IMG/VR virus record: IMGVR_UViG_2897137741_000002
Span: 1-64,000 of that record
Strand: one strand, 5' to 3'
Length of the DNA stretch: 64,000 nt
Origin: an uncultured virus (IMG/VR IMGVR_UViG_2897137741_000002)
Lineage: Duplodnaviria > Heunggongvirae > Uroviricota > Caudoviricetes
The first letter of the stretch is position 1. Each line of letters begins with the position of its first letter. The notes below the pieces were generated by a model that made no database searches, was not told the DNA's origin, and was given only the letters and a program-made list of their open reading frames with translations. A program made the position numbers and the translations under genes. Shown piece by piece: positions 13,617-59,322 of this stretch.

Positions 13617-13642
13617 CTAAATAAAATAATGGTTTTATCCAT
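13617..13642. repeat. 26-bp junction palindrome, copy 1
   Basis: CTAAATAAAA TAATGG TTTTATCCAT. Confidence 0.7.
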
Positions 13643-13690
13643 AAAGCAATAGTATTGCAAATACCATTTTTATATGGTTATAATTAGGTT

Positions 13691-13882
13691 AATGATACAA
13701 TTATATGATTATTTTTTGCATTATGTTTAATGAAATGCATAAAATAAAGAAGACCTGGGGTGCGCTTACACCCACAGGCCGCTATTTGCACAAAAAGCTG
13801 CCCGTCAAAGGGCTTGCTCGGTGTTGTTCTAGATAGACCTTACCCTTCAGGATTCCAGTCTCAAGGGAGGTCTATTTTTTCT
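13691..13882 (+). ncRNA. SR4-like antisense antitoxin RNA
   Basis: TTGCAA-18-TATAAT promoter (13655-13684); ends in TAGACC...GGTCTA-T6 terminator overlapping the bsrG 3' end; ends approximate. Confidence 0.7.
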
Positions 13883-13988
13883 TTTGGTTTGACGTTACAA
13901 GCATCATTATATTGAAGATCAACAAGACGGTATTTAATATCAACCCGCCAAAATTGATCATTATCATTAATGATTCGTAAACAGTCAT
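13872..13988 (-). CDS. bsrG: type I toxin BsrG (38 aa)
   Basis: MTVYESLMIMINFGGLILNTVLLIFNIMMLVTSNQKKK; RBS GGGGGTGGG; missed by the ORF track. Confidence 0.92.
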   Translation of the reverse strand: MTVYESLMIMINFGGLILNTVLLIFNIMMLVTSNQKKK

Positions 13989-14415
13989 TTTCCCACCCCC
14001 TTTCATAGGGGATGAGCAAGACTCCCTTGAGTGAGCAAACTTAATGTACAGGAAATATTATACTATACATAAATGCCCTTGTCGTTAAATATTCTAATAA
14101 ATTAACAATATGAAAAGAACATGCTTATATTGCAGGTTCTTTTTTTTATTTCAAATTCTAAACAATTTATTTTGCCAATATTTCTAGAGTGGGTACTCCA
14201 TTTTCGGAGCCCGCTTTTATTTATTTCAAGCGAATAATGCAATCAGTAGGCCGACTGATTAAAAGAAATAGGGACTTTTTTAGCATGCCTTCCCCAAAAG
14301 GTTATTGCGGTATGACGAAAACTTACCGAAAACCACTTTTAAATTATTCCAAATATTGCAAATGTCTGTTATATTGTTTAATAATTCGAAACATTTTAGA
14401 AAAGAGGGGTTATAA

Positions 14416-15528
14416 ATGGGTACGATCGCACACGAGGTAGTAGCTAATACTCTGAATGAACTTCATGTTGCTATTAAGAAATGTGAGATAGATTTGGCAG
14501 AGCAACTTCTTAAAAAAGCTAAGGAATCCTTGAAGCATATGGAGGAAGACGATAAGGTTATCATTTATTATCAGCTTTTAGAGTCTAGGTACAAAATGAT
14601 GCTCTTCAAAAACAAAGGTAAGGGACTGCCTCCAAACGACTGGAAAGTGAAGAAGAAAGAGCTAGAGGGTTACGATATTGATAACTTGATTGACTACTAT
14701 TTTTACCTCTACGAAGCTGAGTACATGTCCTATACAAAGAATTATGAGCGAGCTATCAGTTTGCTAAAAATTGCGGAGAAGAAGCTCTCTAAAATTGAAA
14801 ACGATATTGAAGCAGCAGAGTTTTATATGAAAACGGCTTCTCTCTATGTGACACTACATCAAAGTGCAGTATCGTTAGGCTATATTAATGAGGCAATCAA
14901 TATATACAGTCAACATGAGGAGTATAAAAGACACCTTACAATCTGTTATGTTATTAAGGCAACGAATTATATGCATTTAGGGAAGTTTGAAGAATCAGAG
15001 GAATACTTTCTTACTGCAATCAAGACTGCGAAGGAACTTAAAGATGAGTTTTATGAGGCAATGCAATATCATAACATTAGTATTCTTTATTCGAATTTTG
15101 ATAAATCTCAAGAATGTATAAATGCAATTAAGAAGGCTGTTAGATGCAATGAATGGCGTGAATCTGTTTACTACATTAACTCCATTTATATGATTGTCCG
15201 AGAAAGATTTAAAATAGGCGACAGGGATAACGCCATGTATTATCTCAAGAAAGGGCAAGATGAGCTTAAGTTTAGAACGAATAAAATTTATGAAACCAAA
15301 ATAAATATTATTCATGACCTATATTGTAAAAGGGTAGATGAAAGCATTGACAAATGCAGGGAAAACGTACAATACTTAGAAGAGAAAGGTGACTTAGATG
15401 GAGTAAGTGACCTTTCCTTAGTTATCTCAAGGTATTATGAGAAGGGTGAGTATTACAAAGAGGCTTTGGAATTTGCTAATAAAGCAATCGAAGTCAAAGA
15501 GAATATGAGGAAACTGGAGGGAATTTGA
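14416..15528 (+). CDS. Rap-family TPR regulator (RapK-like)
   Basis: 370 aa; IAHEVVANTLNE N-terminus, DIEAAEFY, YHNISI TPR motifs. Confidence 0.92.
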   Translation: MGTIAHEVVANTLNELHVAIKKCEIDLAEQLLKKAKESLKHMEEDDKVIIYYQLLESRYKMMLFKNKGKGLPPNDWKVKKKELEGYDIDNLIDYYFYLYEAEYMSYTKNYERAISLLKIAEKKLSKIENDIEAAEFYMKTASLYVTLHQSAVSLGYINEAINIYSQHEEYKRHLTICYVIKATNYMHLGKFEESEEYFLTAIKTAKELKDEFYEAMQYHNISILYSNFDKSQECINAIKKAVRCNEWRESVYYINSIYMIVRERFKIGDRDNAMYYLKKGQDELKFRTNKIYETKINIIHDLYCKRVDESIDKCRENVQYLEEKGDLDGVSDLSLVISRYYEKGEYYKEALEFANKAIEVKENMRKLEGI

Positions 15529-15662
15529 TGAAGAAGTTTATCCTTGGCTCAGTCTTAGCGGTAACATTTTTTGGATTGTCTTTGGGATTTGGGCATCATG
15601 CTGAGAGCACCACAACAAATTCTGGCGGCATAAAGGTTGCAGAGCTTCCTGTTGGTATCTAA
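15528..15662 (+). CDS. Phr signalling pre-peptide (44 aa; mature ELPVG or ELPVGI)
   Basis: TGATG overlap with rap; MKKFILGSVLAVTFFGLSLGFGHHAESTTTNSGGIKVA|ELPVGI. Confidence 0.85.
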   Translation: MKKFILGSVLAVTFFGLSLGFGHHAESTTTNSGGIKVAELPVGI

Positions 15663-15905
15663 ATATAAAGAGGAGCGGTTTTACCGGTTCTTGCTGTCGA
15701 AATTTTTCGGCAGCCTTTATTTTTTGAAAAAACAATTTTATCAAGTGATCGTTTGGCTAACTCTAAAAGGGTAGTCTTTTTTTTTGAATTAGCTATATGG
15801 TGATTATGCAGAAAATAAATTCAATTTATTCTGGAAAGGGGAGAAATCAGGACTTTAGCCGATGTTTATAGATAGCTTCTTATTACATGGTTATGGCGAA
15901 TAATC

Positions 15906-17494: not shown

Positions 17495-17527
17495 GTTAAT
17501 ATTAGATCAGTAAAGGAGCGGATCTAA

Positions 17528-24916: not shown

Positions 24917-25963
24917 TTAGATTGTTGATCCAAACTGTCCCGAGATATATCCACGTTTACCTTTATAAATAACTTCCCAGTAGCCATTGGAATTGTTTTT
25001 ACCTTTAACTGAACCAGAAATGCTGAGCGTATCACCCAGAGTTACTGTGCCAAGGTTCTTCGCTTTATTTTTATCCGGTCTGTCCATTACGATTGCAGCG
25101 CTCTTTACACCGACAATCTTAATTTCGCCTACAGATTTGATTCCGCTGCTATTAGGCTTAGAAGTGGGTTTGGCCTTTGGGGTTGATTGCCCAAGTTCAC
25201 CATCACTTTTAATGTATTTCACATTGACGTAACCACTGTATGTAGCACCTTTAGAGTTTGTATATTTGATATATCCCCAACCGTTTTGAGTTGATCCTTT
25301 TTGATATTGGACAGTGGAGCCTTTAGGGAGGGTAAGTACAATAGAGGAGTTTGCATTGCGCTGGGTTCTCACATTAAGACTGTCTGCGATAACTGTATTC
25401 TTAACATAAGACCCATTTGTTTTAACGACTTTTGTTGGCTTTGAAGATGAGGAAGAAGTATTTCCACCGAGTGCTTTCAATTCAGCAGCAATAGCAGATT
25501 TAACAGCATTCCAACGTCCTTCATCAAGAACTCGATGCGGACAGTATTTGCCAGACCAGTCTTGATGCTTTTTAACTCGATCCACGCCCCAGCCACGTTC
25601 TTTAAGGAGTTGTGCAATAAATTTAATAGCCAACGCTTCAGCTTTTCTATAGCGCTCTCCACCAGATTTAGAGTAGCAAACTTCAACACCGATAGAAGTC
25701 CGGTTTCCTGAATTCACACCTGATCCATCACCTGTATGCCATGCATTACGATTTGTAGGAATCCCTTGAACAACCTCTTTATCATCTACAGCAAAGTGAA
25801 AAGAAACTTCATTATTGTTGCCGATCATATAACTAACTTCATTTTGCGCTGGTGCGTCGTTGTATGTATTGTGAAAAGTGATGAATGAAGCAGATAATGC
25901 ATATGGACATTTGATTGAATATTTCTCTGGGGATACTAACATTTGTCTCGCTTTAATAGCCAT
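24917..25963 (-). CDS. endolysin: Amidase_2 (CwlA/XlyA-type) plus SH3-like binding domains, at the blyA position
   Basis: FHNT, HFAVDD, SIGVEVC, KHQDWSGKYCPH; LNVR..GW SH3b-like domain; BlyA-like last domain. Confidence 0.9.
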   Translation of the reverse strand: MAIKARQMLVSPEKYSIKCPYALSASFITFHNTYNDAPAQNEVSYMIGNNNEVSFHFAVDDKEVVQGIPTNRNAWHTGDGSGVNSGNRTSIGVEVCYSKSGGERYRKAEALAIKFIAQLLKERGWGVDRVKKHQDWSGKYCPHRVLDEGRWNAVKSAIAAELKALGGNTSSSSSKPTKVVKTNGSYVKNTVIADSLNVRTQRNANSSIVLTLPKGSTVQYQKGSTQNGWGYIKYTNSKGATYSGYVNVKYIKSDGELGQSTPKAKPTSKPNSSGIKSVGEIKIVGVKSAAIVMDRPDKNKAKNLGTVTLGDTLSISGSVKGKNNSNGYWEVIYKGKRGYISGQFGSTI

Positions 25964-26077
25964 ATTAAACATCTCTCCTAAATTAAATTTGAGCACAAAA
26001 AAGAGAGAAGGGGACTAAACCCAATCTCTCTTTATCTCACGTATGCTCTTTTTATCTCTGTCTTTCAAGTATGTATT

Positions 26078-26103
26078 TTAAATAAAATCTATATTTTATC
26101 TAG
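26078..26103. repeat. 26-bp junction palindrome, copy 3
   Basis: TTAAATAAAA TCTATA TTTTATCTAG. Confidence 0.75.
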
Positions 26104-41214: not shown

Positions 41215-41233
41215 ACAAAGGAGGTGATATTTT

Positions 41234-42103: not shown

Positions 42104-42129
42104 CTGAATAAAAGAGGGATTTTAACTAA
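42104..42129. repeat. 26-bp junction palindrome, copy 4 (contains the yomM stop codon)
   Basis: CTGAATAAAA GAGGGA TTTTAACTAA. Confidence 0.7.
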
Positions 42130-43127
42130 ACAAATATTTGATTCTTTTCTTCTTCAAAATCCCGTAAATCATAGTGCTTGATTGTTGTTGAGACATCTTC
42201 ATGATGAGCTACATATTTGCTTATCAATTCAATTTTGATTTTCTTAACTTCTAGGAGATAAGTGATGCACGAAGCTTTAAAGAGGTGGGGGTTTATACGT
42301 CGACCAAGGATGTCTGATAACACATCAGAGCAAAAATAATCAGCCCAAGACTCTGACATCTGTTTAGGCTCTCCGCCATACTGAGTAGTGAAGAGGTATT
42401 CATGATCATAGCCACGTTTTTCATGCCATAAACGAAGATACCCCAGTGCTTCTGTGTTAATCATGTACTCAAGAGGTTTTCCTTCACCTTTACCTTTTCC
42501 AAATACCTTATGACTCATCACGTATGACTGACCCTCTGGAACAGGGTAATCTAATATTTCTGTTTTTAACTGTATGAGTTCTGCTCTTCGCCCGCCAACA
42601 TTAAAGGCAGTAGCAAGCCATGCCATCCCCAAATAATTTTCGTCCTCTTTTAGGGCGTCCATCATCAGTTTATAATCATCATATGTAACTTTAACTTTTT
42701 CATAGGTAGTGGTTTTAGGAATAGCTGGCAGCCCACGGGTGAAGTTTCTAAATTTCTCATAATTATGATCATCTTCTGCAACAACATTTTCGATATAATT
42801 ATTTAACGAGGATACACCGGCTTTTTTTAAAGCAATCCCACTTGAAGACATCCCACGATTCTTTAAGAAACTTTGATACCTAATGAAATCACGCTTTGAG
42901 ATCTTATAAAGTTTTTTCCCGTTAAGAGAGGTATGTACCCACCAAAAGAATTGGCGAAGGGAGGAGTAATACTGCTTTCGTGTTTTATCTCTAAATGAAT
43001 GAGCATCTAAAAACTCTTGAACCAAGCTTCTGTGCTCTTCATCTACTTGCTCCCACATTGATTCCGTGACCTCGGGGAGTTTTATTGCTCGAGATCTGAT
43101 CATATTCTTTTCAATTGATTTGGCCAT
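42126..43127 (-). CDS. yomM: tyrosine recombinase/integrase family protein
   Basis: GGRRAEL (R), NPHLFKA (HxxK), AHHED (H), KHY (Y); 333 aa. Confidence 0.88.
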   Translation of the reverse strand: MAKSIEKNMIRSRAIKLPEVTESMWEQVDEEHRSLVQEFLDAHSFRDKTRKQYYSSLRQFFWWVHTSLNGKKLYKISKRDFIRYQSFLKNRGMSSSGIALKKAGVSSLNNYIENVVAEDDHNYEKFRNFTRGLPAIPKTTTYEKVKVTYDDYKLMMDALKEDENYLGMAWLATAFNVGGRRAELIQLKTEILDYPVPEGQSYVMSHKVFGKGKGEGKPLEYMINTEALGYLRLWHEKRGYDHEYLFTTQYGGEPKQMSESWADYFCSDVLSDILGRRINPHLFKASCITYLLEVKKIKIELISKYVAHHEDVSTTIKHYDLRDFEEEKNQIFV

Positions 43128-43140
43128 TAATTCACCACCA

Positions 43141-43560
43141 TTAGTACGTTTTAATTCCATCTGCTTTTAAATCACTTTTTAATGCCTCTGTTAATCGTCC
43201 ATCTTTTAGAGTCTCGGCAGTATTCTTCATAAAAGGACGAGGTTTCCCGTAGCCATAACCGTATGAATCTGGATATGTATAGCCCTGTCCAGTTTCAATT
43301 ACAGTTGCAACATCTTTTCCTTCGTCTTCTCTGGTATTGTCTAATGAGATCCCGTTACTTTCATTAATAGTTGTAAAAGCGCCTTTTAGGTTTCCTGTGC
43401 GTTCATAGAGTAGGGGGCTATAGGCGCCATAAACATCCTCTTCAACATGATCTTGGCCAGTTTTCATCATGACTTGCTTAACATTGGAGGAAGACTTATG
43501 TATAGACTGAATTGCAGCTTTCTCAATCATTACTTTAATTTCTTTTATATTTTTCGCCAT
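43141..43560 (-). CDS. yomN: HK97 gp10-like tail-associated protein
   Basis: RTGNL and PRPFM motifs. Confidence 0.72.
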   Translation of the reverse strand: MAKNIKEIKVMIEKAAIQSIHKSSSNVKQVMMKTGQDHVEEDVYGAYSPLLYERTGNLKGAFTTINESNGISLDNTREDEGKDVATVIETGQGYTYPDSYGYGYGKPRPFMKNTAETLKDGRLTEALKSDLKADGIKTY

Positions 43561-44048: not shown

Positions 44049-44099
44049 TTAATATCCTCCTTTAATATCCTCATTTTGAGCAAAACCATGCTTATCTGT

Positions 44100-44638: not shown

Positions 44639-44648
44639 GACTTACCTC

Positions 44649-45866: not shown

Positions 45867-45867
45867 C

Positions 45868-46224: not shown

Positions 46225-46242
46225 CAACTCCACCTCCTTAAT

Positions 46243-46268
46243 TTGAATAAAAACTGTCTTTTATCTAA
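46243..46268. repeat. 26-bp junction palindrome, copy 5
   Basis: TTGAATAAAA ACTGTC TTTTATCTAA. Confidence 0.75.
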
Positions 46269-46287
46269 AAAAACAAGAGGGGAGGAC

Positions 46288-46515
46288 TTATTCAAAAAGC
46301 CCATCCTCTTGTAGCTTATTCCATATAACTTCCCAAGCTGGAGTAGAAGAAGGGGATGACTGAAGCGAACTTAAAGGTTCGTATTCATTGAAGTCGCCTT
46401 CAAACCGTTGCTTGAAATCATCAACACTGATATAGGAACCATCTGATAGCAATAGGAATTTTTGTTCCAAACCATCAAATTGTTTGAACAGACCACATAC
46501 TTCATCAAATGTCAT
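46288..46515 (-). CDS. yomT: small acidic phage protein
   Basis: 75 aa; start overlaps the upstream stop. Confidence 0.7.
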   Translation of the reverse strand: MTFDEVCGLFKQFDGLEQKFLLLSDGSYISVDDFKQRFEGDFNEYEPLSSLQSSPSSTPAWEVIWNKLQEDGLFE

Positions 46516-47126: not shown

Positions 47127-47143
47127 AATAAACGCCTCCTTAA

Positions 47144-47941: not shown

Positions 47942-47983
47942 ATTGTTTCCTCCTAAATAAAAATAAAAAGAGACTAAAGTTAA

Positions 47984-48694
47984 TTAGCCTCCAAATAATT
48001 GCTCGATATTTTTAGCATCTTTAGTGCTCAGGTGATAAGATTCTTCCTTGTAAAGATTAATGTGACTGCTCCAATCACTTACTTTGACATCAGGAGAGAC
48101 GGTAGCAAAAAGTGTGGTTGTGTTATAATTCATAACTTCAGCCATCCTGTAGAACGACAAATATAGTTGATACATCGTCATTTCAGATATTTCTTCATAC
48201 GTGTATCCGTTAAATGCAGCAACACAGCTTACTATATCCTTTAAATCACTTTGAGAATCTTGTTGCTTGAGTGATTTACTTATATCATGGAACTCCTGAA
48301 GTTCATCATTGTCAACGACCTTGTCTTCAGTGATACAATGCATGTCTAGTATTAGTTTTCGGAGACGGGGAAAATTATGTTTTCCAATCAACGATAGGGA
48401 ATCCTTGTTTATCAATACTTTTGAAAAAACTTTGAAATAAGCCTCGTGAAAATCAGGGAGTACCGAATGTACAATTTCATAAAGATCTCTCTTTTTCATT
48501 TCAATAATAAATGGGTCAAGCGAGCCATCCTCATTAAACCTTGAATATTCTTTAATAAGACTTTTCTTATTCATCCTCAACATGCTTAGTTCTTTGGTGT
48601 AGAGAGGATAATCTTTTAAGCGGATGAAATCAATCTCTCCTATTTCAGTCTGGATCGGTTTTCCTAAGAAAAAGAAATCCTTTAACTCATTCAT
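47984..48694 (-). CDS. yomV: phage protein YomV
   Basis: 236 aa; synteny. Confidence 0.75.
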   Translation of the reverse strand: MNELKDFFFLGKPIQTEIGEIDFIRLKDYPLYTKELSMLRMNKKSLIKEYSRFNEDGSLDPFIIEMKKRDLYEIVHSVLPDFHEAYFKVFSKVLINKDSLSLIGKHNFPRLRKLILDMHCITEDKVVDNDELQEFHDISKSLKQQDSQSDLKDIVSCVAAFNGYTYEEISEMTMYQLYLSFYRMAEVMNYNTTTLFATVSPDVKVSDWSSHINLYKEESYHLSTKDAKNIEQLFGG

Positions 48695-49197
48695 TTACTT
48701 GCTCCAAAAGTAAAGATCATCTTGTAGCCCAAATATCCGTCAGGGGGATTACTAATAAGCAAACGTTTATAATCTACTGTTACACCAAAACCAGCAATAT
48801 TTTTATTGAAAAATAATTTTGAAACCCTGTCGATGATTTTCAAACTTCGGTACTCAGATATCTCAAATGTATTAATGTGTGTGTATACATCGATCATCAA
48901 TTCTTGATTTAACAACATAAAGCTTTGGTTTGTCGGCTTAGGCAATGCATTCCCTAAATAAATACACATCCTACATAATGGTGAATCCGATAGATCATCT
49001 GTTTTAGGTGCTCGCTTGAATATGGTATTGATTATAGCGGGAGAGTCATTTGTGGAGTCATAATAATTTTCGAGTGATTGAACATCTGGATGAGAAGGGG
49101 AGAGAGGATCAGTTTTGTAATACAAGAGCCGATTCAGTTCAACATCATCCATAACTAATCTGAAGACTTTTGTCATCTGTTCAACAGTCATGCTCAT
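48691..49197 (-). CDS. yomW: phage protein YomW, possible tail terminator
   Basis: 168 aa; synteny. Confidence 0.72.
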   Translation of the reverse strand: MSMTVEQMTKVFRLVMDDVELNRLLYYKTDPLSPSHPDVQSLENYYDSTNDSPAIINTIFKRAPKTDDLSDSPLCRMCIYLGNALPKPTNQSFMLLNQELMIDVYTHINTFEISEYRSLKIIDRVSKLFFNKNIAGFGVTVDYKRLLISNPPDGYLGYKMIFTFGASK

Positions 49198-49844
49198 GTC
49201 TTTTCACCAACTTTCTTTTTGGCAACCAATTTTATTGTTCCGTGGTCTCCATAAACTTTAGAATAGTCTATATCATCGACTTGATAATCTTCGCCAAAGA
49301 AGGTGAGGGTAAGTCCGATTTTCAATTTTTCATGAACAAGATAAGGAATTGTAATGTTTGCTTGACCATCAGGAAGATTTACCGCCAATTCAGTGCCATT
49401 TATTGAAGTTGTCCTTTCGAATATGCAGGGGACTTCAGTTTTTTCGCCAGGTACTTTTTCATAAATTGGCTTACCAGTGATTTCGTTAATTTTGCCAGTA
49501 TCGATTAGCTTGTCTTCTGAAGTAAGAAAAAATGATGTTCCACATATTTTTATCTCAGCCTTTTTGTAAATCTTATTACTGAGAGGGTGGGAGGTGATGA
49601 GCCATGTTTCATCATTAAACTTAACAACTCCGCCACGATAAATGTCAGCAATTTCACCTAATATATATCTTGCAGAACCATCGCCACTAGAGTACTTAGA
49701 AGTGATCATTACTGTTTTTTCGATTCCATCAATTGTGACTTTTTCAGATTCAAACCCCTTAAGGCCTTGTTGGAAAATAAGCTTACCATCATGAAGAAGT
49801 TTATTATTAATGTTAACCTTGTGGTAATTACTGTAGTCCTTCAT
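49194..49844 (-). CDS. yomX: phage protein YomX, possible head closure protein
   Basis: 216 aa; synteny. Confidence 0.72.
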   Translation of the reverse strand: MKDYSNYHKVNINNKLLHDGKLIFQQGLKGFESEKVTIDGIEKTVMITSKYSSGDGSARYILGEIADIYRGGVVKFNDETWLITSHPLSNKIYKKAEIKICGTSFFLTSEDKLIDTGKINEITGKPIYEKVPGEKTEVPCIFERTTSINGTELAVNLPDGQANITIPYLVHEKLKIGLTLTFFGEDYQVDDIDYSKVYGDHGTIKLVAKKKVGEKT

Positions 49845-50082
49845 TCGAATCACCGTCTGTTACTAAGTTATCCCTAAGTCTGCTTAATTCACCACTTACT
49901 GTTAAAATAGAGTCCCTGATTTCTGTGAGTTCAGGATCACTTAGCAGCTTTTTATTAAGGTATTTCTCCAATTTGAAGAGGACTGAATTGTTTCTTTTAC
50001 ACAGTTTATTGCAAACAACATCTAAGTCCTCAAGCTTTATTTGTCCATCTTTATGTGCCGATTTAACTTTAATTGTACTCAT
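49828..50082 (-). CDS. yomY: phage protein YomY
   Basis: 84 aa; overlaps neighbours. Confidence 0.72.
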   Translation of the reverse strand: MSTIKVKSAHKDGQIKLEDLDVVCNKLCKRNNSVLFKLEKYLNKKLLSDPELTEIRDSILTVSGELSRLRDNLVTDGDSNEGLQ

Positions 50083-50474
50083 AGATAATCCACCGCAGCG
50101 TTCAATATCAAGCGCTCAATTTCGTCTTTCTGATCCATTACACTTTGTTTAAGTGAATTGAGTTGCGTACCAAAGTTCTTGATCCCCACATCATTAGTGA
50201 AGGGCTGCCACGTATTCTCAAACAAGGTCTTTTTATTTAACAAAAAGATGTATCTCAAGAAGTGTGCAAGAATAAGAAGATCATCCTCAGATAATTCTCG
50301 ATTAACAGTTTCAGTTGAATTATCAGCTTTTAAATTGTCTCTAAGCCGGTTATTGAAATGAAGGATTGCATTTCGAATTGATTTATAAATGTCCTCTTCT
50401 TGTTGAGGAACATCAAAATCGGACGTCTCGCAGTTGTTTAGAAAGGTTTCCCATATTTGATCATAAGATGTCAT
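50079..50474 (-). CDS. yomZ: phage protein YomZ, possible head-tail adaptor
   Basis: 131 aa; synteny. Confidence 0.72.
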   Translation of the reverse strand: MTSYDQIWETFLNNCETSDFDVPQQEEDIYKSIRNAILHFNNRLRDNLKADNSTETVNRELSEDDLLILAHFLRYIFLLNKKTLFENTWQPFTNDVGIKNFGTQLNSLKQSVMDQKDEIERLILNAAVDYL

Positions 50475-50488
50475 AAAAATCCCTCCTC

Positions 50489-50959
50489 TTAGTCAAAGAG
50501 AAGGGAAGGATCAGCGACTCCCATCCAATCAGCCAAAACTTTTAATTTGCCTGCAGCAATGTCATCGCTAAATTCTGAAGCAACGTCAATAATAAATTGC
50601 TTCTCAGAATCCACTGTGATTTTATCGAGCTTATTTTTTAGTTGAGCAATATTTCCCGATTTAATCATCTTTTCAATTTCTTCTTTGGTATGGATGTTAT
50701 TTTCATAAGCCTCCGACTCAACAATAGAATCTTTAATTTCTTTGGTTGTCTCATTATCTTCAACAATAACTAATTCACCTTTATCGAAACAAACACTGTT
50801 CATTGTGAGCCATTCAACAACTTCTTTTGGAACTTCTTTAATATCAGCCTTCCCATTTTTACTTCCAGCCCAAGTGTATTGTTTATGTCCGCCATCTCCG
50901 GTATACCCTACAAAATAAGATGTACTTCTGTATCGTGCTAACTTAATTTTTTCAGTCAA
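50489..50959 (-). CDS. yonA: phage protein YonA
   Basis: 156 aa; synteny. Confidence 0.75.
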
Positions 50960-50994
50960 ATTTATATCCTCCTAAAAAATCCTCATATTTTGAT

Positions 50995-52011
50995 TTAGAT
51001 AGATACCGCAGCTTGTTCTTCAATAATTCCGATTGCTTCCCCAAAAAGAAGGTTAACAGAAGCATCTTGAACAATTTTCATTTTAATTCTTTCATCTTCG
51101 ATATCTTGTTCTGTCAATTGACGCAGTCCGCCATACTCGACAACAGAAAACGGTTTTTGAGAAACACCGCCGGCAAACATATAACCTTTGTTGACAGGAA
51201 GTTCGACTTTACTATTTGTATCATCTGTAAATGGGTTAGTGAGGTTAACAGCAGTTGTTCTGCCGATTGTAGTAGGATTTAGGGCAGTGAGGAGTTCTCC
51301 TTTTACTTCTTCTGTTAAGAAGTTCTTAAACGTGGAGTCTGTTCCTTGTTGGAATGCAAAGTAGTCGATAAGAAGGGTGTCAGCTACAAAGATAGGTTTT
51401 CCGCCATAACGTTGAAGAACAGAAGCTACTTTGTTGTATTGTTGAAGAGTAAGGTTTGAGCCTGTTTGAACATTTTTTGCAGGGATTTTACCAGCTGTAA
51501 TTGCGCTTGCAGTTAATTGATGAATTTTATCGAGGTACAAACGGACTTTAGCATCTGCGATATCATTCACCAATTTATTGAAGTAAACAATTGAATCTGT
51601 TACGAGATCTAGGGGTTCATAATAGAAACCTGTTGACATAGTTTTCGGAACAGCAGGAACTGTTTCTTGTCCTTCAACACGAACCAAATCAACACCAGAG
51701 CCTGTAGCAGACCAAATTACTTTTGCCTTATTCTTTTTTGGAATTTTAATTTCTTTAATATTGCCTCGTTTTTCTTGTTGGACATTGGCCAGAAGGGAGA
51801 GGAGCTGTGTTACTTTTGGTTTCGCAATTTCATCAGCTTGTTCAACGACAAGGTTATTAAATTGATGGAGCATGGAAGGGTCAGGTGTAGTACCGCCATC
51901 ACCAAACACTTTCTTAATGTAAGTTTGGATATCAGCTTGGTCTGTACCGTCCATTTTGTTATTTAATACACGGCTAAACAAGCCTTTGATTTTCACAGTA
52001 TCTAATTTCAT
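50995..52011 (-). CDS. yonB: probable major capsid protein
   Basis: 338 aa; strong RBS; follows protease/scaffold and decoration-like genes. Confidence 0.78.
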   Translation of the reverse strand: MKLDTVKIKGLFSRVLNNKMDGTDQADIQTYIKKVFGDGGTTPDPSMLHQFNNLVVEQADEIAKPKVTQLLSLLANVQQEKRGNIKEIKIPKKNKAKVIWSATGSGVDLVRVEGQETVPAVPKTMSTGFYYEPLDLVTDSIVYFNKLVNDIADAKVRLYLDKIHQLTASAITAGKIPAKNVQTGSNLTLQQYNKVASVLQRYGGKPIFVADTLLIDYFAFQQGTDSTFKNFLTEEVKGELLTALNPTTIGRTTAVNLTNPFTDDTNSKVELPVNKGYMFAGGVSQKPFSVVEYGGLRQLTEQDIEDERIKMKIVQDASVNLLFGEAIGIIEEQAAVSI

Positions 52012-52049
52012 TTAAAATACTCCTTTTATTGAAATTTATTTGTTATGTA

Positions 52050-52586
52050 TTAGGCCTCGATTACTTCAAGGCGAACAAGCTTTTGTCCCATTGTGTAAAC
52101 AAGATCATCTTCATTATTTACAACTAGGAACTTAGCAGAAGAATCAGCATAATCCTCATGAGGTGAAGCAGGATCACTAAGAATATACTTTTGAGATGCG
52201 ATATCAAAGTGAGCTACTTGACCTTGTTTAACCTCAGTCACTCCTGTATTAAATGAAAATGCAGAAACATCAAAACGGGTATAAGCTGGCTCAAGGATAA
52301 CAATTCGAGCATGCTCTCCTACACCGTTATAAAAATCTCTCATTGATTCACCAAGGTAGCGTGCTTCAGGAGATGCAATTAAATATGATTTTTTTGTTTT
52401 ATCTGATAACTTCGAAGCTGTACGGTTTCCCTCAGCATCAAATCCAAGTTCAACAAGCATAAAGTTATCAATATCTGATCCAGTTACTTTTGCACCGTGA
52501 GCAACTGTTTTAATTTTTAAAGAATTCAAGTTTCCAGTAGTATGATTCCCTACTTCAGTAAGGGCTTTTTGTAATCTTGTAGCCAT
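52050..52586 (-). CDS. yonC: probable head decoration protein
   Basis: 178 aa; between scaffold and capsid genes. Confidence 0.7.
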   Translation of the reverse strand: MATRLQKALTEVGNHTTGNLNSLKIKTVAHGAKVTGSDIDNFMLVELGFDAEGNRTASKLSDKTKKSYLIASPEARYLGESMRDFYNGVGEHARIVILEPAYTRFDVSAFSFNTGVTEVKQGQVAHFDIASQKYILSDPASPHEDYADSSAKFLVVNNEDDLVYTMGQKLVRLEVIEA

Positions 52587-52610
52587 ATTTTATTCCTCCG
52601 ATTTTAAAAT

Positions 52611-54047
52611 TTATTGTGAAAAGCGGGATTCAAAAGAGTCATCATTAGGGATTAAATTTTCCCGTTTGCTAGAAAATTCTCTAATGGTTGTATTAGTTTT
52701 AGCAGTAACACTAACTAAATCAACTAACATTGTGTTAAGTTGTAATACAGCTTTTTCTCCTTCTACACCTTGTTTAATGGAAGCATGGATAAGGTTTTGT
52801 ACTTCTTCTGTACTGAATTTTTCCTCAGCATTTAAAGCTTCAAATTTCGCTTTATAGAATTCATTTTTCTCACTTAGTTTTTGCTCTAATAAAGTTTTCT
52901 CGTGTTTTTCTTTATAAGGCTTCAATTGTTCCACTTCAGAATTTAATTGCACAAGCTTTTCACTGGCAGTGTTGAATTGCTGTTCAATTCCTACCTTATC
53001 CTTATTGATTTGATTTACTTGTTTCGTTAAATCTTTAATTTGTTCATCTTTCTGGTTAAGTTGTGATTGAATAGGTTCAGGAACAACTTCCTCCCAGTTG
53101 CGCGTCATGAATACCTCAGTTTTACTGTCAAAATCAATTGAAACAGTATCGCCTGTTCTTGTGTAATTGAACTTAAAGTATTTGTCATAGCTATTTTCAT
53201 CTGACCAGCTATACACGTTTACGATGAAATACGTATCATATACATCTGCAATAAATGAATCTGATTCTTTATCAAGGGTGGGATCTAATTGGCTATATAG
53301 AAGCGTCCGAACGTCAGAGTGAGACAATTCAAACACTTTTCTAAACTTATTCATTTTTTCACCTTCCTCATTATTTTGTCTTGTAGCTGCTTGAGCCACT
53401 AATCTTTCAAATCGTTGAAGTTCATTAAAGCTTAGAAGTTTGGAAGAATCATAGGCGGGGAGGACAATGTCATGCTCTCCACGTTTCTCTGAATTTAAAA
53501 TTGCATGACCTTCGAAATAGATGGGGGACTGTAGGTGTTCGATACCATCTTGCACAGTGTAATTTGAATAAAGGATCTCACAACTTGTATTAATGTTGAT
53601 GCCTCTACCATACCATTCAAGTAAAAGTTCACATGCATCTTTAAATCGAGAGCTCCAAAGTATTGCATCTGCTGCCAATACTTCTTTTTTACCATCTAGG
53701 GTTTCAATTTCAGTTATGTATCCCTCGGATGTAAAGACACCGATTGGGGCAGTATCTCTTTTTACTTCAAGTTCTCCGTGCTTGTCTGTGTCTAGATAAG
53801 CTTCATGAGTTCCCAATGCATCTGTAGAAGTATTTAATTCATCAACCTCGTAATATTTTGCAACAATCGGTTTATTAATAATTGTTGAAGCAGCTTCAAG
53901 AGCAACATCCTTAGAAATTACTGCATTATTGTGAGAGACATCGAAATCAAAAATGACAAAGCTACATGACAACTTTGTTGGGTCATCTGATGTTTTAATC
54001 TCATTCAATTGAAGTTGGCATAGTTTTTTCTTTTGCTTCTTTGTCAA
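52611..54047 (-). CDS. yonD: probable prohead protease/scaffold
   Basis: 478 aa; N-terminal globular domain, C-terminal coiled coil. Confidence 0.75.
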   Translation of the reverse strand: MTKKQKKKLCQLQLNEIKTSDDPTKLSCSFVIFDFDVSHNNAVISKDVALEAASTIINKPIVAKYYEVDELNTSTDALGTHEAYLDTDKHGELEVKRDTAPIGVFTSEGYITEIETLDGKKEVLAADAILWSSRFKDACELLLEWYGRGININTSCEILYSNYTVQDGIEHLQSPIYFEGHAILNSEKRGEHDIVLPAYDSSKLLSFNELQRFERLVAQAATRQNNEEGEKMNKFRKVFELSHSDVRTLLYSQLDPTLDKESDSFIADVYDTYFIVNVYSWSDENSYDKYFKFNYTRTGDTVSIDFDSKTEVFMTRNWEEVVPEPIQSQLNQKDEQIKDLTKQVNQINKDKVGIEQQFNTASEKLVQLNSEVEQLKPYKEKHEKTLLEQKLSEKNEFYKAKFEALNAEEKFSTEEVQNLIHASIKQGVEGEKAVLQLNTMLVDLVSVTAKTNTTIREFSSKRENLIPNDDSFESRFSQ

Positions 54048-54059
54048 ATAATTTCACCT

Positions 54060-54085
54060 CCCTTCAAAAGTGAAGTTTTAAATAG
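54060..54085. repeat. 26-bp junction palindrome, degenerate copy 6 (contains the yonE stop)
   Basis: CCCTTCAAAA GTGAAG TTTTAAATAG. Confidence 0.4.
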
Positions 54086-55598
54086 GATTGTCATTACCGT
54101 TGGATGTAGCTGACTTCACTGTGTTGTCGTTGTCTTTATTTCCTTCATTTGGACGGCCTGCTTCATTCCCAGTGAAGGTATATGAAGTTTGATAAGGTCT
54201 AATTTTTTCTTGGAGTTTCAGCTCTTCAGTTTCATATAGAGTTTGTTCAAGGTAACTTTCCCAAGACACTCCTGCCAAATTATCAACTACGTGCTTAATA
54301 GACCAACCTTTATCGTTTAGCTTAATTAAGATGTCCATTTTTTCTTTAAGAGTGAGCGGCTTGTCTTTATCGTAATTCATATAGTAATTGTCTTTTTGGG
54401 CAGCAGGCAAAACAAGGTTGAATAACTTTTGATAAACCTCTTGTTCAATATCCTCCATTAAAACGCCAATACGCTTATAAAATGTATCCAAGTTTAACGA
54501 CGAAGTTGCGTAGTTACCCCCATCACCATTTAAAAGGGAGCCGGATAAGCCGTAAGCAGATTGAATGTCGCTATTGATATGGTCAAACTTTGCTCCATCT
54601 AATCCATCTGCTTTAACATCTGGAAAGTTGATGTCAGCAAAGTCAGGGATTGATACTACAGTTACTCCATCTTTTTGGTTCTTCTCTAAAGCTGCTTTAA
54701 CTCCACCATGAATTTTTTGTTTAACTGCTTTAGGCAGCTTCATGTTTGTGTATTCGCCATTACCTTTATCTGTTCCAATCGTTAGAACTGCAACAGCGTT
54801 AATAATTTTATTTGCAATCGATCTTTCAACATCTTTAAGTTTCTTTTTATGGAGAACGTCATATAGACCTGGGGTAACCCAAGATGTTCCCAATCCTTGA
54901 TTTCTTTTTAGCGTCCCTGTGCGTAGTGGAAAAGTTCTTTCTTGTGGCAGTTCCTTATATCGATATTTCTCTCGATCTTTCATGAAGTTTTCATAATCGC
55001 TTTGTTTAATATAAGGGGAGAGGCTTTTTAACAATTCATTTCTGTGATCATCTTTATACTTAGTGAACAGCTCCATGTCAACTACACATACCCAGTCTCC
55101 ATTTCTTCTAAAGGAGGGGAATACATATTTAATTTCATCAAAAATAAACGGATAGGGACTCTTAGCATCCCCAAGCCATATACCAACAAGAGTACCAGCT
55201 GTAGCTACCTGTTTTAACAGATCTCTAGTAAGTCTTTTGTGTTTAACCTTATGTAAGGATTTATTCAAAAGGGAAATATGCTTATCTGAAGACTTAACTT
55301 TATTAAAGGAGTCAATTTTATAGTTGAGGGTAGGGAGGGCTTCAATCAATTCAAACAATTGGTGAATCTCTGCAGTCGAAATGTAAAAATACTCAGCAAG
55401 ATCTTCAATTTCTTCTTGAAATTCATCGGGGTTAGAAAAATAATTCTTTAATTGTTCGGCCTCAATTTCCGTAACAATGCCATTGGAAAACATATTTGAG
55501 ATAAAGCCGGAAGCAAATGTAGAAGTATAAGTTGAATAGTCATTCAGCATTTGCTTATACTCTTCAGACTCAATGTCAACTTTATTTAAGGTTACCAT
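54078..55598 (-). CDS. yonE: probable portal protein
   Basis: 506 aa; directly downstream of the terminase. Confidence 0.8.
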   Translation of the reverse strand: MVTLNKVDIESEEYKQMLNDYSTYTSTFASGFISNMFSNGIVTEIEAEQLKNYFSNPDEFQEEIEDLAEYFYISTAEIHQLFELIEALPTLNYKIDSFNKVKSSDKHISLLNKSLHKVKHKRLTRDLLKQVATAGTLVGIWLGDAKSPYPFIFDEIKYVFPSFRRNGDWVCVVDMELFTKYKDDHRNELLKSLSPYIKQSDYENFMKDREKYRYKELPQERTFPLRTGTLKRNQGLGTSWVTPGLYDVLHKKKLKDVERSIANKIINAVAVLTIGTDKGNGEYTNMKLPKAVKQKIHGGVKAALEKNQKDGVTVVSIPDFADINFPDVKADGLDGAKFDHINSDIQSAYGLSGSLLNGDGGNYATSSLNLDTFYKRIGVLMEDIEQEVYQKLFNLVLPAAQKDNYYMNYDKDKPLTLKEKMDILIKLNDKGWSIKHVVDNLAGVSWESYLEQTLYETEELKLQEKIRPYQTSYTFTGNEAGRPNEGNKDNDNTVKSATSNGNDNPI

Positions 55599-55615
55599 GT
55601 TTCACCTCATTTCTT

Positions 55616-57385
55616 TTAAAAATAGACTAGTTCATCTTCAACGTCATATTCAGTTTGTTTGTTTAACTGTCTTTCTAATACAGTCGCAATATAGTTGCCA
55701 TAAGCCACTGAGCTATATCTGTCTTTTCGTTTACTCTTTGGCTCTTTAAGCTTAACTTGTCCGTTATCGCTATATTCAGCTTCTAAGTTGATCATTTCAT
55801 TTATTAGAAGGGTAATCTGAGCATAGCTTGAAAGGAATTTTCCTTTAACTTCAGGAGATAGCCCTTCATAGCCTTTAAATCTTTTCAGGTATTCTTTTCC
55901 TTCATTTTCGTTGATAGGAATTTTGATTTTTCCTCGTTTGAATCCATCTTTTAGTAATACCGCAATTTCGCTGTTCAATTGTGCATTACCTTTAATGCTA
56001 TAAATTACTTTTTCGGCATTTTGATAAGTACAACGCTCAGCCATTCTTTCATCGTTAATACATGAAAATGGCTCATATTCTTTTGCACGTTCTTTATCAT
56101 ATAAAGGCTGGCATAATGCATCATACACACCAAGTCCGATACTTTGAGTATCTAATACAATATAATCGCAATCATAATCTTCGTATATTTGTCTAATTCT
56201 TGTTGCTTGAGTTCCTGTGTGACCGCCTACGATGCTCTCCATGTATACAATATGACGATCATATCCATTGGAGTTTGGAATCAGTCTGAATACAGTGTAA
56301 ACACTGGCATCATTATCCTTACCGGCCATTCCAGCGATATCATTGCTTACCAGTCTAATTTCTCCTGGTTTCTTGCCTTCATATTTGAAGTTGGAATCCT
56401 TGATTAGACTGTAATAGTCAGGAGGGAAGAGGGGAGAAGCAAGCTTGCGGTTCTTTTCAATGTCTTCGAATTTAAAATAGGCTTTTTCAGATTCACCAAA
56501 CCAGAGAGCTTCCATTTCCATAGACCAACCGATAGGATCAAAGTCTTCTTCGGCCATTTCATCTCTAACCTGATCTTTATCCAAAAGACCTTCTTTAATT
56601 GCGATCTGATAAGGGAGACCACACACAAAATATTTTGATCCTTTCATCATGGCATTGTAGTAAGTTATGAATCTGTTAAATGACCAATGAACCTTGTACC
56701 AGCAGGAAGACAAGTAAATTTCTTTGTTTCGTTCTTTTAAGTGAGCGTATTCTTCTTTTTCGAGATATTTAGGAGAACGGGGAGCTGTCAGGAATTTTCG
56801 AAGTACTTTACTGATGATTTCAAAATCAACCATTCTGAATTCATCTACAATAAGGAGGTTTGCACGCTTGGAGCGGGCGCCATCATTTGAGGCTACGATT
56901 TTAATCCAGCTGCCATTATGAAACTCCACTTTAGCATCATTTGTTGAGGTTTTTAAATCTTCAATTTCTCGCCTTAAATTAGGTGATTCTTTGCGTAAGT
57001 CATCAATTTTCTCTATGACTTCACGAGCTTGTCCCTTTGTGCCCGATGCGATAACTATTTTAGTACCTGGGAAGAGTATGGCTTGCACACAGCAGTATAC
57101 AGAGGTTAGCCAAGTTTTACCCTGCCCACGACTGGCCAGGTACATAAAATAATGGTTATGTACCATCATGTAAATTAAAATACATTGAAACAATTTAAGT
57201 GTAATACCCAAGTATTCTTTTACAAAACGATGTGGGTTTGCTCTATAGAAAGAAGTCCATGCGCCGATACCATCCATTAATCGTTCAGATTTTGATTTCT
57301 TTTTAAAGTTGTTTCCCTTTTTAAAAATATTGATTCCTCGACTGTGCTTGTTGCGATCTGTTGTAAAATTTTTATGTAAGGTCAT
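55616..57385 (-). CDS. yonF: terminase large subunit
   Basis: ASRGQGKT Walker A, LIVDE Walker B, SNDIA...KDRYS nuclease motifs; 589 aa. Confidence 0.93.
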
Positions 57386-58292
57386 TTTCTCGATCCTCTT
57401 CTTCTGCAACAGGTTCTTCAACAGTATGCTTATTCATTTCTTCCCAATATTCCTCTGAATATTGATTTTTCAAACCAAGCATTCGAGACAGATGCCCAAG
57501 GAAAAATACCTTAATGTATTTCCCGATTTTATCAGGATCTTTCCATCTAGGCTCTGGCTCAGGAATAGGTCTCTCATTCTCATATTTTTTGATCAGAGTG
57601 CCAAAAGACTCTTGTTCAACTCCACTTGCTCCAGTTTCTTGAACGGGTTTTAAATTACTTGACCCAAGTAAATCTTGAAGAGTTTTTTGCTGCTGATCGA
57701 CTTTTTCACCATTTTCACGCCGTTTGCGTATATCTAGCCGAGTCAAACATATTTCATTTATAAGAAGTTCCATTCCCTTAGAGTCGCATTCATACCTATT
57801 CGTGAAGTCAATGTACTCATTCTGAAGCCAAATGTAATCTTCAACATCAAGACCACGACCCCAGAATTGCATTAATTCATCTATGTCTTCCTTAGATATA
57901 TCTTCTGTACTTTTAGCTAGTAATAGCTGTGTTGTATATTCTTGTTCTTCTTCAAAGTCAAACTCACTGTCTGCCCAAGTTTTTGACTTGTAATCTTTCA
58001 TTCCGATATTTTTCATATACGTACCTAACACATTTCCAGCTGATTTTTTCTTGGACTCTGATTCATTGACAGCGGAAACCCATAAGTCGTAAACAAATGG
58101 ACGATCAATCATTCTCAAGATGTTTTGCACATTCTTTAAGTTATCTTTGTCTTTTTGGAATTCATTTTGGAGACAGCTTTTACATACTGACAGCTTGCCG
58201 GTTGCAGAATTGAAAGGAGATTCCGAGATATAATATTGATTGGCATTTTGTTCTTTGCCGCAGCATGAACATTTTATTTTTTCTGCAGACAT
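57372..58292 (-). CDS. yonG: phage protein with N-terminal CxxC zinc motifs, possible terminase small subunit
   Basis: 306 aa; CSCC...CKSC; overlaps the terminase start. Confidence 0.72.
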
Positions 58293-58394
58293 ATTTCACC
58301 TCCATAAATTTGATGTAAACACATTTTATAAAACGCCCAGCAATAGAGCGGAAGGGGAGTACCACAATCATCGCTGGGCGTTCTAAAAAGGTGC

Positions 58395-58931
58395 TTAAAC
58401 TAAAGAAGAGAGGATTTCATCGTGATGAAACCCTCCTTTGATCTCAATTCCTAATTTTTTAATTGTTTTGAGTTGCTCTTTATTAACAGTACAGTCAATA
58501 TAGACGCCATTCGGAAAATGATTACCTTCTAAATAATTGGCTGAGAAAATAGTACAACTAATTCCTTTTTCTTTAGCCAAGTCTTTATAAATCTCTTTAT
58601 GTCCACCTACAAGTAAAGGGATATTATTCTCTTGTGATAACCTAAGAAGAAGAGTTGTTTTGCCTTTACCTCTCTGAGAATCATTTACCAGAAGAACCTT
58701 AGGTGCATTTTTATGGAATTTTTCTTGTAGTGATTTATCAACGTCATTAAAAACAACTTTCATTCGCTTGAATGGCGGTTCGATTTTATCACCAAAAATA
58801 GTTAAATGAATAGCTTCTAATACTCGTTTAATCTCAGCATCACATCTGTATCCAGATTTTTTTAACTCTGAGAGAGTTTCTAAATGTTTATTTAAGTATT
58901 TAAAATCTTCATTTGTCATTTTCGTCTTCAT
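58395..58931 (-). CDS. hypothetical protein with P-loop-like motif
   Basis: SQRGKGKTT; at the yonH position. Confidence 0.7.
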
Positions 58932-58951
58932 CCTCAATCGTTTTTTTTGTA

Positions 58952-59287
58952 TTACTTTAATAAACCTTCAATAGCTCCTAGGCTCACAACTATCTCATAA
59001 GGTGAATAGTGTTTTGCTGCCACACTCATGTTTCTTAAATCATCTAGGGCAATTCTTTTATTTATAAATGCTTCTCTATGAGACTCAATAACATATTCAG
59101 GATCAACAAATGGCTTACTTACAGTATTACAAGTCACTTCTTCATAAACAGCAGGAATAGAATCCAATAGATACTTATAATCACATAGCTCTTTCATTAG
59201 TTGATCTTTGTTAATGTTTCCTGTTTCATCTTCAATGATTTGCTTCCAGAAAGACTCGTAAACCTCTTTGTAATCAGCCACTTGCAC
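58952..59287 (-). CDS. hypothetical phage protein (111 aa)
   Basis: GTG start after GGGG; compact operon placement. Confidence 0.7.
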
Positions 59288-59296
59288 TACCCCAAT

Positions 59297-59322
59297 CTGA
59301 ATAAAATTAAAGTTTTATCAAT
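59297..59322. repeat. 26-bp junction palindrome, copy 7 (contains the upstream gene's stop)
   Basis: CTGAATAAAA TTAAAG TTTTATCAAT. Confidence 0.75.

Follow-up and report, generated by a model that had tools for sequence, protein, structure and literature searches.

Gene junctions of SPbeta-like Bacillus phages carry dozens of copies of a palindrome that has, we think, quite probably served as a preferred crossover point in the evolution of this group. We analyzed it in the first 64 kb (hereafter the window) of a single viral contig of 137,586 bp, IMG/VR record IMGVR_UViG_2897137741_000002, where an earlier note had pointed to it as a candidate recombination site, and in related phages. A further proposal, that the sites are substrates of a site-specific recombinase, most likely the phage protein YomM, and that the spacer between the two palindrome arms acts as a locus address, draws on sequence comparison and a structure model and stands at about even chances.

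Breakpoints at gene boundaries in phage mosaics are usually explained by random illegitimate or relaxed homologous recombination together with selection. If the proposal is true, an addressed scaffold of sites with its own recombinase would constitute a programmed route to mosaicism. It would explain the clean exchange of accessory genes in SPbeta-like phages, which are models for arbitrium and for defense and counter-defense: defense, counter-defense and toxin-immunity genes would be swapped slot by slot, the genome never being scrambled. It would also assign a function to the conserved and unstudied YomM family, and would provide dozens of natural orthogonal sites for one recombinase, usable for multiplex cassette exchange in Bacillus. 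A literature search that did not extend to Lazarevic et al. 1999 or Brady et al. 2023 (Cell Host Microbe) found no description of the palindrome; a search on the name YomM returned nothing relevant.

The palindrome and its position among genes

Scanned with up to three mismatches, the pattern proposed in the earlier note gives 11 strand-matches at six loci of the window, where 0.97 are expected and none of 100 shuffles attains 11. Five of the six loci match on both strands; the motif being near-perfectly palindromic, the single orientation claimed in that note carries no meaning. The note had also suggested scanning the complete prophage and its relatives with a weight matrix, and here the motif clearly exceeds chance: a symmetrised matrix of 30 columns, iteratively trained on our contig and on SPBc2, detects, at 14 bits or more, 39 sites in our entire contig and 34 in SPBc2; first-order Markov shuffles of SPBc2, of which 50 were scored, contain 0.5 on average. 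The consensus is TYTRRATAAAA-N6-TTTTAYYARA, built on the nearly invariant core TAAAA-N6-TTTTA. Scores are bimodal, with few values between 8 and 14 bits. This matrix was trained on the same data that it scores; as an untrained control, the bare core ATAAAA-N6-TTTTAW occurs 24-30 times forward per phage in five other phages, and the reversed pattern 0-1 times.

Seven strong copies are present in the window, at 7440, 13617, 26078, 42104, 46243, 52008 and 59297. The exact core TAAAA-N6-TTTTA occurs seven times, against 2, 1, 1 and 0 occurrences with N4, N5, N7 and N8, respectively, and one for the reversed control. The five strong copies listed in the earlier note (13617, 26078, 42104, 46243 and 59297) were all found where it had put them, with spacers that are, as it said, all of 6 bp and all different; 7440 (22.8 bits) and 52008 (22.4 bits) had been overlooked. 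Among its degenerate copies, those at 15906 (2.7 bits) and about 44076 (-1.7 bits) are unsupported and that at 54060 is weak (7.7 bits). The host part, positions 1-6000, contains no copy, in agreement with the same note, its best score being 3.9 bits.

Seven genomes were compared, namely our contig, SPBc2, phi3T, SPR, Goe11, BUCT083 and SPbetaL5, with 31-39 sites each. A logo was built from 143 distinct sites of these phages that lie between co-directional genes and were oriented with transcription, identical contexts being counted once and divergent, convergent and in-ORF (open reading frame) sites left out. It reads TYTRRATAAAA-N6-TTTTAWNNARA, an 11-6-11 layout in which T8, A9-12, T19-22 and A23 are almost invariant. 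The dif-like geometry that the earlier note had recognized is thus present: two inverted arms around a spacer fixed at 6 bp, as in tyrosine-recombinase core sites. The arms are asymmetric at positions 5-7 versus 24-26, an asymmetry tied to the transcription strand.

Nearly all sites lie at gene junctions, 37 of 39 in the contig (with crude ORF calls) and 34 of 35 in the annotated SPBc2 genome, which confirms the gene-boundary location first described. They are spread over the whole 130-kb phage and over both gene strands, with an uneven density: 32 in an early region of about 64 kb, 5 in a late region of about 40 kb and 2 in the left accessory arm. The usual position is after the stop codon of one gene and ahead of the ribosome-binding site of the next. 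Among the 143 sites of the logo, the upstream stop codon falls within the 30-mer in 60 (the TAA of the core in 37, the TRA of the outer arm in 14), the next start codon lies 7-31 nt past the 30-mer in 79, and a Shine-Dalgarno-like tetramer is found at most 22 nt away in 99. Three sites of the window had been said to hold the stop codon of the upstream gene: this stands for yomM (42126) and for the ORF at 59318, while the yonE case rests on the weak copy at 54060.

This position between stop codon and ribosome-binding site, the nearby start codons included, is what would be expected of an element acting on RNA or transcription, which might be a phage-specific promoter, a hairpin for termination or processing, or an aid to translation ahead of each cistron, and the NC_001884 record labels two copies, at 2622-2651 and 116406-116431, simply as stem_loop. 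We nevertheless regard such an element as highly improbable. At the variable arm positions of 73 distinct sites, Watson-Crick pairs are as frequent as the column composition predicts; as there is no covariation between the arms, we reject a selected hairpin. Predicted RNA folds of the seven window sites are weak (-0.3 to -5.0 kcal/mol; z from -3.0 to +0.7), four of the seven being no better than shuffles, and the spacer is fixed at 6. A terminator scan does not call the sites themselves as intrinsic terminators, and a scan of the coding strand over 41000-60500 places no sigma-A-like pair of hexamers at any of the four sites covered. Nor do the sites seem to be the late promoter of the YonO polymerase: the whole late operon is reported to start at a single place upstream of yonK, with a promoter sequence given as unknown (PMC5467207), and five sites lie inside that operon. 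The constant 6-bp gap and the independently matching half-sites therefore make a pattern suited to reading by a protein dimer.

Spacers, breakpoints and exchange in register

The seven phages contain 58 distinct spacers. Once the circular permutation of the records is allowed for, these follow a single colinear order from phage to phage, in which spacers have been gained and lost. No spacer is repeated within any of the seven genomes. Moreover, pairs of spacers alike in at least five of six letters are rarer within a genome than in column shuffles (4-10 against a null of 10-16; P 0.01-0.05), bearing in mind that seven related genomes are not seven independent tests. In heterospecific lox sites, matching spacers pair and unlike spacers do not. 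The rarity of like spacers fits the pattern expected if similar spacers were harmful within a genome and identical ones served to pair genomes; avoidance of long direct repeats would fit also, if less specifically.

Breakpoints, defined as places where BLAST homology between two genomes ceases for at least 60 bp, accumulate at the sites: 6-12 of the 38-84 breakpoints per genome pair lie at most 20 bp from a site centre, compared with 0.4-1.0 at random. Since 58-76% of breakpoints fall in gene junctions in any case, other gene junctions are the fair control. With partners pooled, breakpoints hit 24 of 34 site-bearing and 56 of 149 site-free junctions in SPBc2 (p=5.5e-4); in our contig the figures are 25 of 37 and 59 of 167 (p=4e-4). 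A measure that is independent of BLAST ends, and that uses junctions with both flanks alignable, points the same way: the two sides of the junction differ in identity by more than 0.10 in 29% of comparisons at sites (n=100) and in 9% at control junctions (n=822; Mann-Whitney p=0.0016).

The shape of the conserved segment is most visible in pairs of sites that share a spacer between genomes. Taking 40-bp flanks and an ungapped identity of at least 70% as homology, both flanks are homologous in 114 such pairs, the left only in 122, the right only in 79 and neither in 246. The pairs with two homologous flanks are all about 97% identical, so that spacer conservation is uninformative there. In the identity profile (n=92, 79 and 208 once pairs with a flank identity of 0.5-0.7 are dropped), identity persists through core and spacer, from -9 to +8, no matter which flank is shared; in the outer arm facing the unrelated flank it drops to the level seen between sites. 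A crossover could thus lie anywhere within the identical 16-18 bp. Isolated identity islands, that is, exact matches of at least 16 bp outside high-scoring segment pairs of at least 80 bp, were scanned in 42 ordered genome pairs. Sites make up about 1% of the unaligned DNA and account for 418 of the 1726 islands. SPBc2 has 16 motif islands, recurring in a median of 3-4 of six partners, and 23 non-motif intergenic islands (including copies of the SPBRE repeat and a ribosome-binding site), 15 of which are found in one partner only.

Slots that lie between the same two adjacent spacers in two genomes were compared in 398 pairs, slots above 40 kb or below 30 bp being left out: 114 pairs have the same content, 206 partly the same and 78 unrelated content; the latter slots are small (120-2200 bp). 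Where only the left flank is shared, the spacer stays the same in 122 of 131 pairs, and where only the right flank is shared, in 79 of 93. A clean site-to-site deletion appears once in all ordered genome pairs, as a single hybrid site facing two sites with a 2836-bp cassette. As flanks keep their own spacer, exchange takes place in register, without shuffling. Contigs assembled from 21 public runs, in which stretches without cover were not counted as evidence, add a swap at L066 3394-5041, replaced by 1832 other letters with both ends at site edges (3374 and 5042), and further joints that end at 9270 and 7777, next to the sites 9265 and 7778.

The earlier note had proposed integron- or pdif-like shuffling of genes. 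Of this picture the geometry, the link to mosaicism and the candidate enzyme hold, and the shuffling does not: cassettes stay put, and the one site-to-site configuration mentioned above is the only trace of integron-like excision. As to its expectation that gene-exchange breakpoints would fall at the sites, homology does stop at the edges of core and spacer, but most breakpoints are elsewhere.

Several observations weigh against giving the sites too large a part in exchange. Breakpoints away from sites are the majority (for instance 59 of 70 between our contig and SPBc2), as are joints away from sites in other strains' contigs (most of 17, 15 of them listed). The enrichment over other junctions is modest, 1.5-3 fold, and is non-significant per genome pair (p 0.064-1.0). 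BLAST extension into the shared motif may draw block ends to the sites, and the seven phages are related, so that pair counts are non-independent events. The public runs were compared as assembled contigs, where rare products of excision or exchange are not visible.

The mechanism that we favor would run as follows. The palindromes would be protein-recognition sites, composed of two inverted arms of about 11 bp, with the inner core TAAAA/TTTTA, set 6 bp apart. Co-resident phage genomes would swap DNA between matching sites, in register, and unrelated accessory genes would thereby replace each other within a slot with gene order kept. The spacer would be the overlap region, needing a match between partners as in heterospecific lox sites; such matching would permit allelic exchange and disfavor deletions between different sites of one genome. 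The likeliest catalyst would be the YomM-type tyrosine recombinase of the phage. We infer protein binding, the identity of YomM as the protein in question, and enzymatic rather than short-homology crossing-over. In its most specific form, the mechanism has some 35 heterospecific, addressed sites, each recombined by a dedicated YomM, with lysine at the Arg II position, exclusively with the site of like address in a phage or prophage that shares the cell; this form we offer as a tentative idea, open to considerable doubt.

Comparison with known systems helps to place these sites. XerC/XerD sites of the dif/pdif type bound gene modules on Acinetobacter plasmids, and the palindrome resembles them in its 11-6-11 inverted arms, its A/T-rich inner positions, the accessory modules that it brackets and the variation of spacers between sites. 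It differs from them in that its arms are symmetric, suggesting one protein rather than an XerC arm and an XerD arm, that it is found in a phage, that the candidate enzyme is phage-encoded and has Lys at Arg II, and that its spacers are locus-specific and colinear, genes staying in their slot. The Cre/loxP system combines palindromic arms with an asymmetric spacer that needs to match, in a 13-8-13 arrangement, and its heterospecific variants are used in engineered cassette exchange. Two sites with different spacers around a cassette would likewise allow in-register replacement without deletion in the phages, and the weak sequence matches and fold matches of YomM include Cre; the layout differs, with 11-bp arms and a 6-bp spacer. 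We know of no natural phage with dozens of heterospecific sites.

In integrons, the attC sites are long, imperfectly palindromic and recombine in the form of folded single-stranded DNA. The phages share with integrons the small promoterless genes in arrays, with a site after the stop codon and before the next gene, and the integron integrase IntI (2a3v) is among the fold matches of YomM. However, no attI/Pc platform is found in the phage, cassettes keep their slot and only one site-to-site deletion occurs. Membership of the integron class can be rejected: the sites are simple 28-bp palindromes without longer covarying stems, they are dispersed, and yomM lies in the tail-gene region, away from any array head. 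Finally, the promoter-stem-loop (PeSL) cassettes of T4-type phages and the linker or boundary sequences of lambdoid phages are regulatory sequences used as homology. They too are short, conserved intergenic elements at mosaic boundaries that have been proposed to serve modular exchange; the palindrome departs from them by its strict 5-6-5 structure, its locus-specific centre and its candidate dedicated recombinase.

YomM and other candidate proteins

The yomM gene (42126..43160, minus strand) encodes the candidate enzyme, a protein with invariant catalytic-type residues and tyrosine-recombinase fold matches. Against Pfam, it matches only an N-terminal SAM-like domain, at 25.7 bits and below the cut-off of 27, and phmmer gives weak matches to Cre (E=0.009). 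Homologues number 702 at E<=1e-5; the best 120 of these, with 59-97% identity, represent several Bacillales genera, among them Bacillus, Priestia, Paenibacillus and Brevibacillus, and precomputed PF00589 matches exist for many. An alignment of 20 homologues shows no variation at R191, K222, H292, K295, H320 and Y330 (R-K-H-x-x-K-H-Y). In a profile search, the HLFK motif of YomM aligns with HQLR of the archaeal XerA, which places YomM Lys295 at the Arg II position. An AlphaFold model, with a predicted local distance difference test score (pLDDT) of 76 and a predicted template-modeling score (pTM) of 0.53, comes closest to XerA, Cre, Tn1549 Int, IntI (2a3v) and XerH and also matches XerD and lambda Int, with a probability of 1.0 and template-modeling (TM) scores of 0.3-0.5. 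By alignment and by this model, YomM belongs to a highly conserved family of predicted Xer/Cre fold that retains the putative nucleophile and, of five further catalytic positions, four; the fifth carries a conservative change throughout the family.

The core of the palindrome accompanies YomM beyond the SPbeta-like phages of our comparison. The 22 loci compared around YomM homologues in other species, 412 kb in all, contain 35 exact cores, versus 7 for the reversed pattern, 1 for N5 and 4 for N7. A site, or a one-letter variant with TGAAA or TTTCA, lies directly 3' of the yomM-like stop codon at about 12 of 21 loci, the window included. In Virgibacillus, where YomM is 63% identical, 28 exact cores are found in 140 kb around the gene, with 2-3 for controls; 22 of the 28 cores of this prophage are intergenic at a coding fraction of 0.89, many being followed immediately by GGAG, and the density elsewhere on the 1.19-Mb contig is about one core per 40-60 kb. 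Counts over whole host genomes are near equal to controls in four of five cases (105/111, 76/67, 160/140 and 223/192), a genome-wide excess being seen in G001 only (72 versus 40); the local cluster was looked at in G003 only. In the same five genomes, homologues of the phage protein YopP/SroD are 24-36% identical and those of YomM 53-66%. Judged from these identities, the unchanged core fits the slowly evolving YomM better than YopP/SroD.

Four Paenibacillus loci (L056, L059, L060 and L063) lack the exact core and have TGAAA-N6-TTTCA and mixed forms instead, one of them directly 3' of the yomM-like gene. Over 20 loci around Paenibacillus-type homologues, the variant pattern T[AG]AAA-N6-TTT[CT]A was counted 7+21 times versus 2+5 in controls, numbers too few for an analysis of covariation with YomM. 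These variants may represent a lineage-specific change of the core.

The earlier suggestion that YomM might be the recombinase thus gains from the predicted Xer/Cre fold, the conserved tyrosine and the company of the core, and loses from the lysine at Arg II. To our knowledge, textbook tyrosine recombinases all have Arg II. Also weighing against YomM are the absence of a Pfam catalytic-domain match at E<=0.01 in the window protein, the common membership of the SPbeta-like lineage as a whole, which could by itself account for the joint occurrence of YomM and core, and the positional conservation of other late-region sites, which makes adjacency to yomM not unique. An identical island of 16-24 bp could moreover serve the phage annealase (YorG, annotated as Sak4-like) without any site-specific enzyme, and the tight placement between stop codon and ribosome-binding site, like the asymmetry of the arms, would suit a role in expression.

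Some of these points lead to the main rival explanation, an operator, which the earlier note had named as its alternative. The palindrome would then be an operator or architectural site that a dimeric phage protein binds for purposes other than recombination, and would provide only passive short homology for ordinary or annealase-driven recombination. It might stop or block early transcription, let YopP/SroD silence genes in the lysogen, or help to organize the genome. We judge this explanation, in general and with these roles, to be rather unlikely, though of real weight; if it is correct, an undescribed regulon of about 35 sites exists in one of the best-studied Bacillus phages. A dimeric binder would be suited to a strict 5-6-5 core with arms that do not covary, and to sites just ahead of ribosome-binding sites (the 99 of 143 given above) with a transcription-linked asymmetry. 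The phage encodes, by annotation, the Sak4-like annealing protein; other conserved non-coding elements, SPBRE included, also form identity islands (the 23 of SPBc2), and most breakpoints are away from the sites. YopP too has an R...HxxK...Y pattern, seen by eye in the translation, and integrase-fold proteins of this phage (MrpR/SroF) are proven repressors according to two reports (PMC10516654; bioRxiv 2025.11.27.690993).

On the other hand, an operator has no need of spacers that are more unlike than chance. The motif islands of SPBc2 recur in a median of 3-4 of six partners whereas 15 of the 23 other intergenic islands are confined to one, and the core stays unchanged across genera in which YopP homologues have diverged to 24-36% identity and YomM homologues to 53-66%. 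There are some 35 sites in co-directional arrays, with no evident promoter at them, versus 10 MrpR peaks. SroF boxes already differ between phi3T and SPbeta (bioRxiv 2025.11.27.690993).

The palindrome is likewise distinct from SPBRE, the operator of MrpR/YopR/SroF. Both SPBRE/Phi3TRE and the palindrome are dispersed repeats of SPbeta-like phages, the former recognized by an integrase-fold protein (MrpR, YopR, SroF). Nevertheless, the 9-mers common to nine of ten MrpR-bound upstream regions are AATATGTAT/ATATGTATA, another element, and the palindrome is unlike this AATATGTATA-type 9-mer in sequence; the genes bound by MrpR in chromatin affinity purification with sequencing (ChAP-seq) also differ from those at the sites of the window. 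MrpR has 10 peaks, located at promoters (PMC10516654). The preprint on SroF describes a 24-26-bp non-palindromic box bound by a monomer, with boxes of phi3T and SPbeta unlike each other, and leaves open the role of a second repressor, SroE (bioRxiv 2025.11.27.690993). SPBRE therefore contrasts, with its 10 promoter sites and a box that varies between phi3T and SPbeta, with a palindrome present at about 35 junctions and with a core constant across genera.

Cre/loxP serves P1, and Xer/dif serves chromosomes, in the resolution of dimers. YomM could use the palindromes in a similar manner, for dimer or concatemer resolution during replication or for cyclisation after injection, with module exchange as a side effect. 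The Xer/Cre-like fold of YomM and the site beside yomM in many lineages agree with such a use, in which same-spacer copies would pair in register. Yet one site would suffice for it, and the uneven density (32 early sites versus 5 late) tracks accessory-gene junctions; we consider it improbable as the function of these sites, and retain addressed exchange by YomM as the preferred reading.

A homologue of YopP/SroD is encoded beyond the window (G000 78675-79796, L067). By eye, its translation shows Arg...H-x-x-K...H...Y (FRVSAIL, LHSFK, TTERY), with lysine at the Arg II place and the tyrosine kept, as in YomM; yet it is described as an auxiliary repressor. The YopQ/SroE homologue (G000 79891-81285, also beyond the window) has a DGYHR motif, which we take to recall DGQHR/DndB-ParB-like domains.

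Sites of the window and neighboring features

The leftmost site, at 7440..7465 (spacer TGGGTA; 22.8 bits; two mismatches, one of them in the core, TTAAA), is intergenic between the ORFs 7088-7381 and 7844-8377, in an accessory region just within the left end of the prophage; its spacer recurs at the syntenic place in SPR and BUCT083. At 13617..13642 (TAATGG; 25.1 bits; one mismatch), the BLAST block with SPBc2 begins at 13620, yokL being present there in SPBc2 only, and the spacer is common to SPBc2, SPR, Goe11, BUCT083 and SPbetaL5. The next three sites and that at 59297 have spacers found in all seven phages. The site at 26078..26103 (TCTATA; 28.9 bits; no mismatch) separates the endolysin gene (24917-25996, minus strand) from yomE (26137-28071, minus strand). 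That at 42104..42129 (GAGGGA; 28.2 bits) covers the stop codon of yomM, and an SPBc2 homology block begins at 42124. The site at 46243..46268 (ACTGTC; 25.9 bits; no mismatch) separates a yomS-like gene (45868-46233) from a yomT-like gene (46288-46530).

At 52008..52033 (22.4 bits), between a yonC-like and a yonB-like gene, the spacer TACTCC reads GGAGTA on the coding strand and is the Shine-Dalgarno sequence of the yonB-like gene, whose ATG adjoins the right arm; the putative address is therefore also translationally constrained there. The site at 59297..59322 (TTAAAG; 21.3 bits; two mismatches) covers the stop codon of the ORF 59318-59908 (minus strand). The weak copy CAAAA-GTGAAG-TTTTA at 54060..54085 (7.7 bits), at the yonD/yonE junction, is possibly a decayed site: a 17-mer of it is an isolated identity island in SPBc2 (52232-52248).

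Directly after the yomM-adjacent site, a terminator-like hairpin lies at 42075-42100 on the minus strand and pairs partly with the spacer (AAAATCCCTC...GAGGGATTTT). The spacer beside yomM stays similar (xxCxTC) across several distant genera, a likeness that could be caused by this hairpin or by an address function. Several palindromes are immediately followed, ahead of the ribosome-binding site, by an A-rich box (AGARTAAAAATAAAAT...), as in SPBc2 (L003) at 113687-113702 and 132770-132791. This box matches the reverse complement of the 26-bp Phi3T SroF box given in the preprint (bioRxiv 2025.11.27.690993), and Phi3TRE-like boxes therefore adjoin junction sites even in SPbeta.

Megablast places the window among SPbeta-like Bacillus phages, the closest records being SPbetaL2 and SPR (about 97% identity over 90% of a 20-kb query). 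About the first 6 kb (1-6000) are taken as host flank because they are richer in G+C (0.40-0.44) and because their nrdE/nrdF-like genes are only 68-83% identical to the phage's own nrd genes by BLAST; they are probably host DNA flanking the attachment site, the remainder being prophage. The phage itself carries bnrdE/F at 120.5-124 kb (94% identity). With separate copies in flank and phage, two sets of ribonucleotide-reductase genes are thus present on the contig. Inside the phage nrd genes, at L066 14463-15301 (G000 122463-123301), two other strains have contigs that lack 837 bp and carry 29 different letters in their place; this looks like an intron, intein or homing-endonuclease insert that is present or absent, with no involvement of the palindromes.

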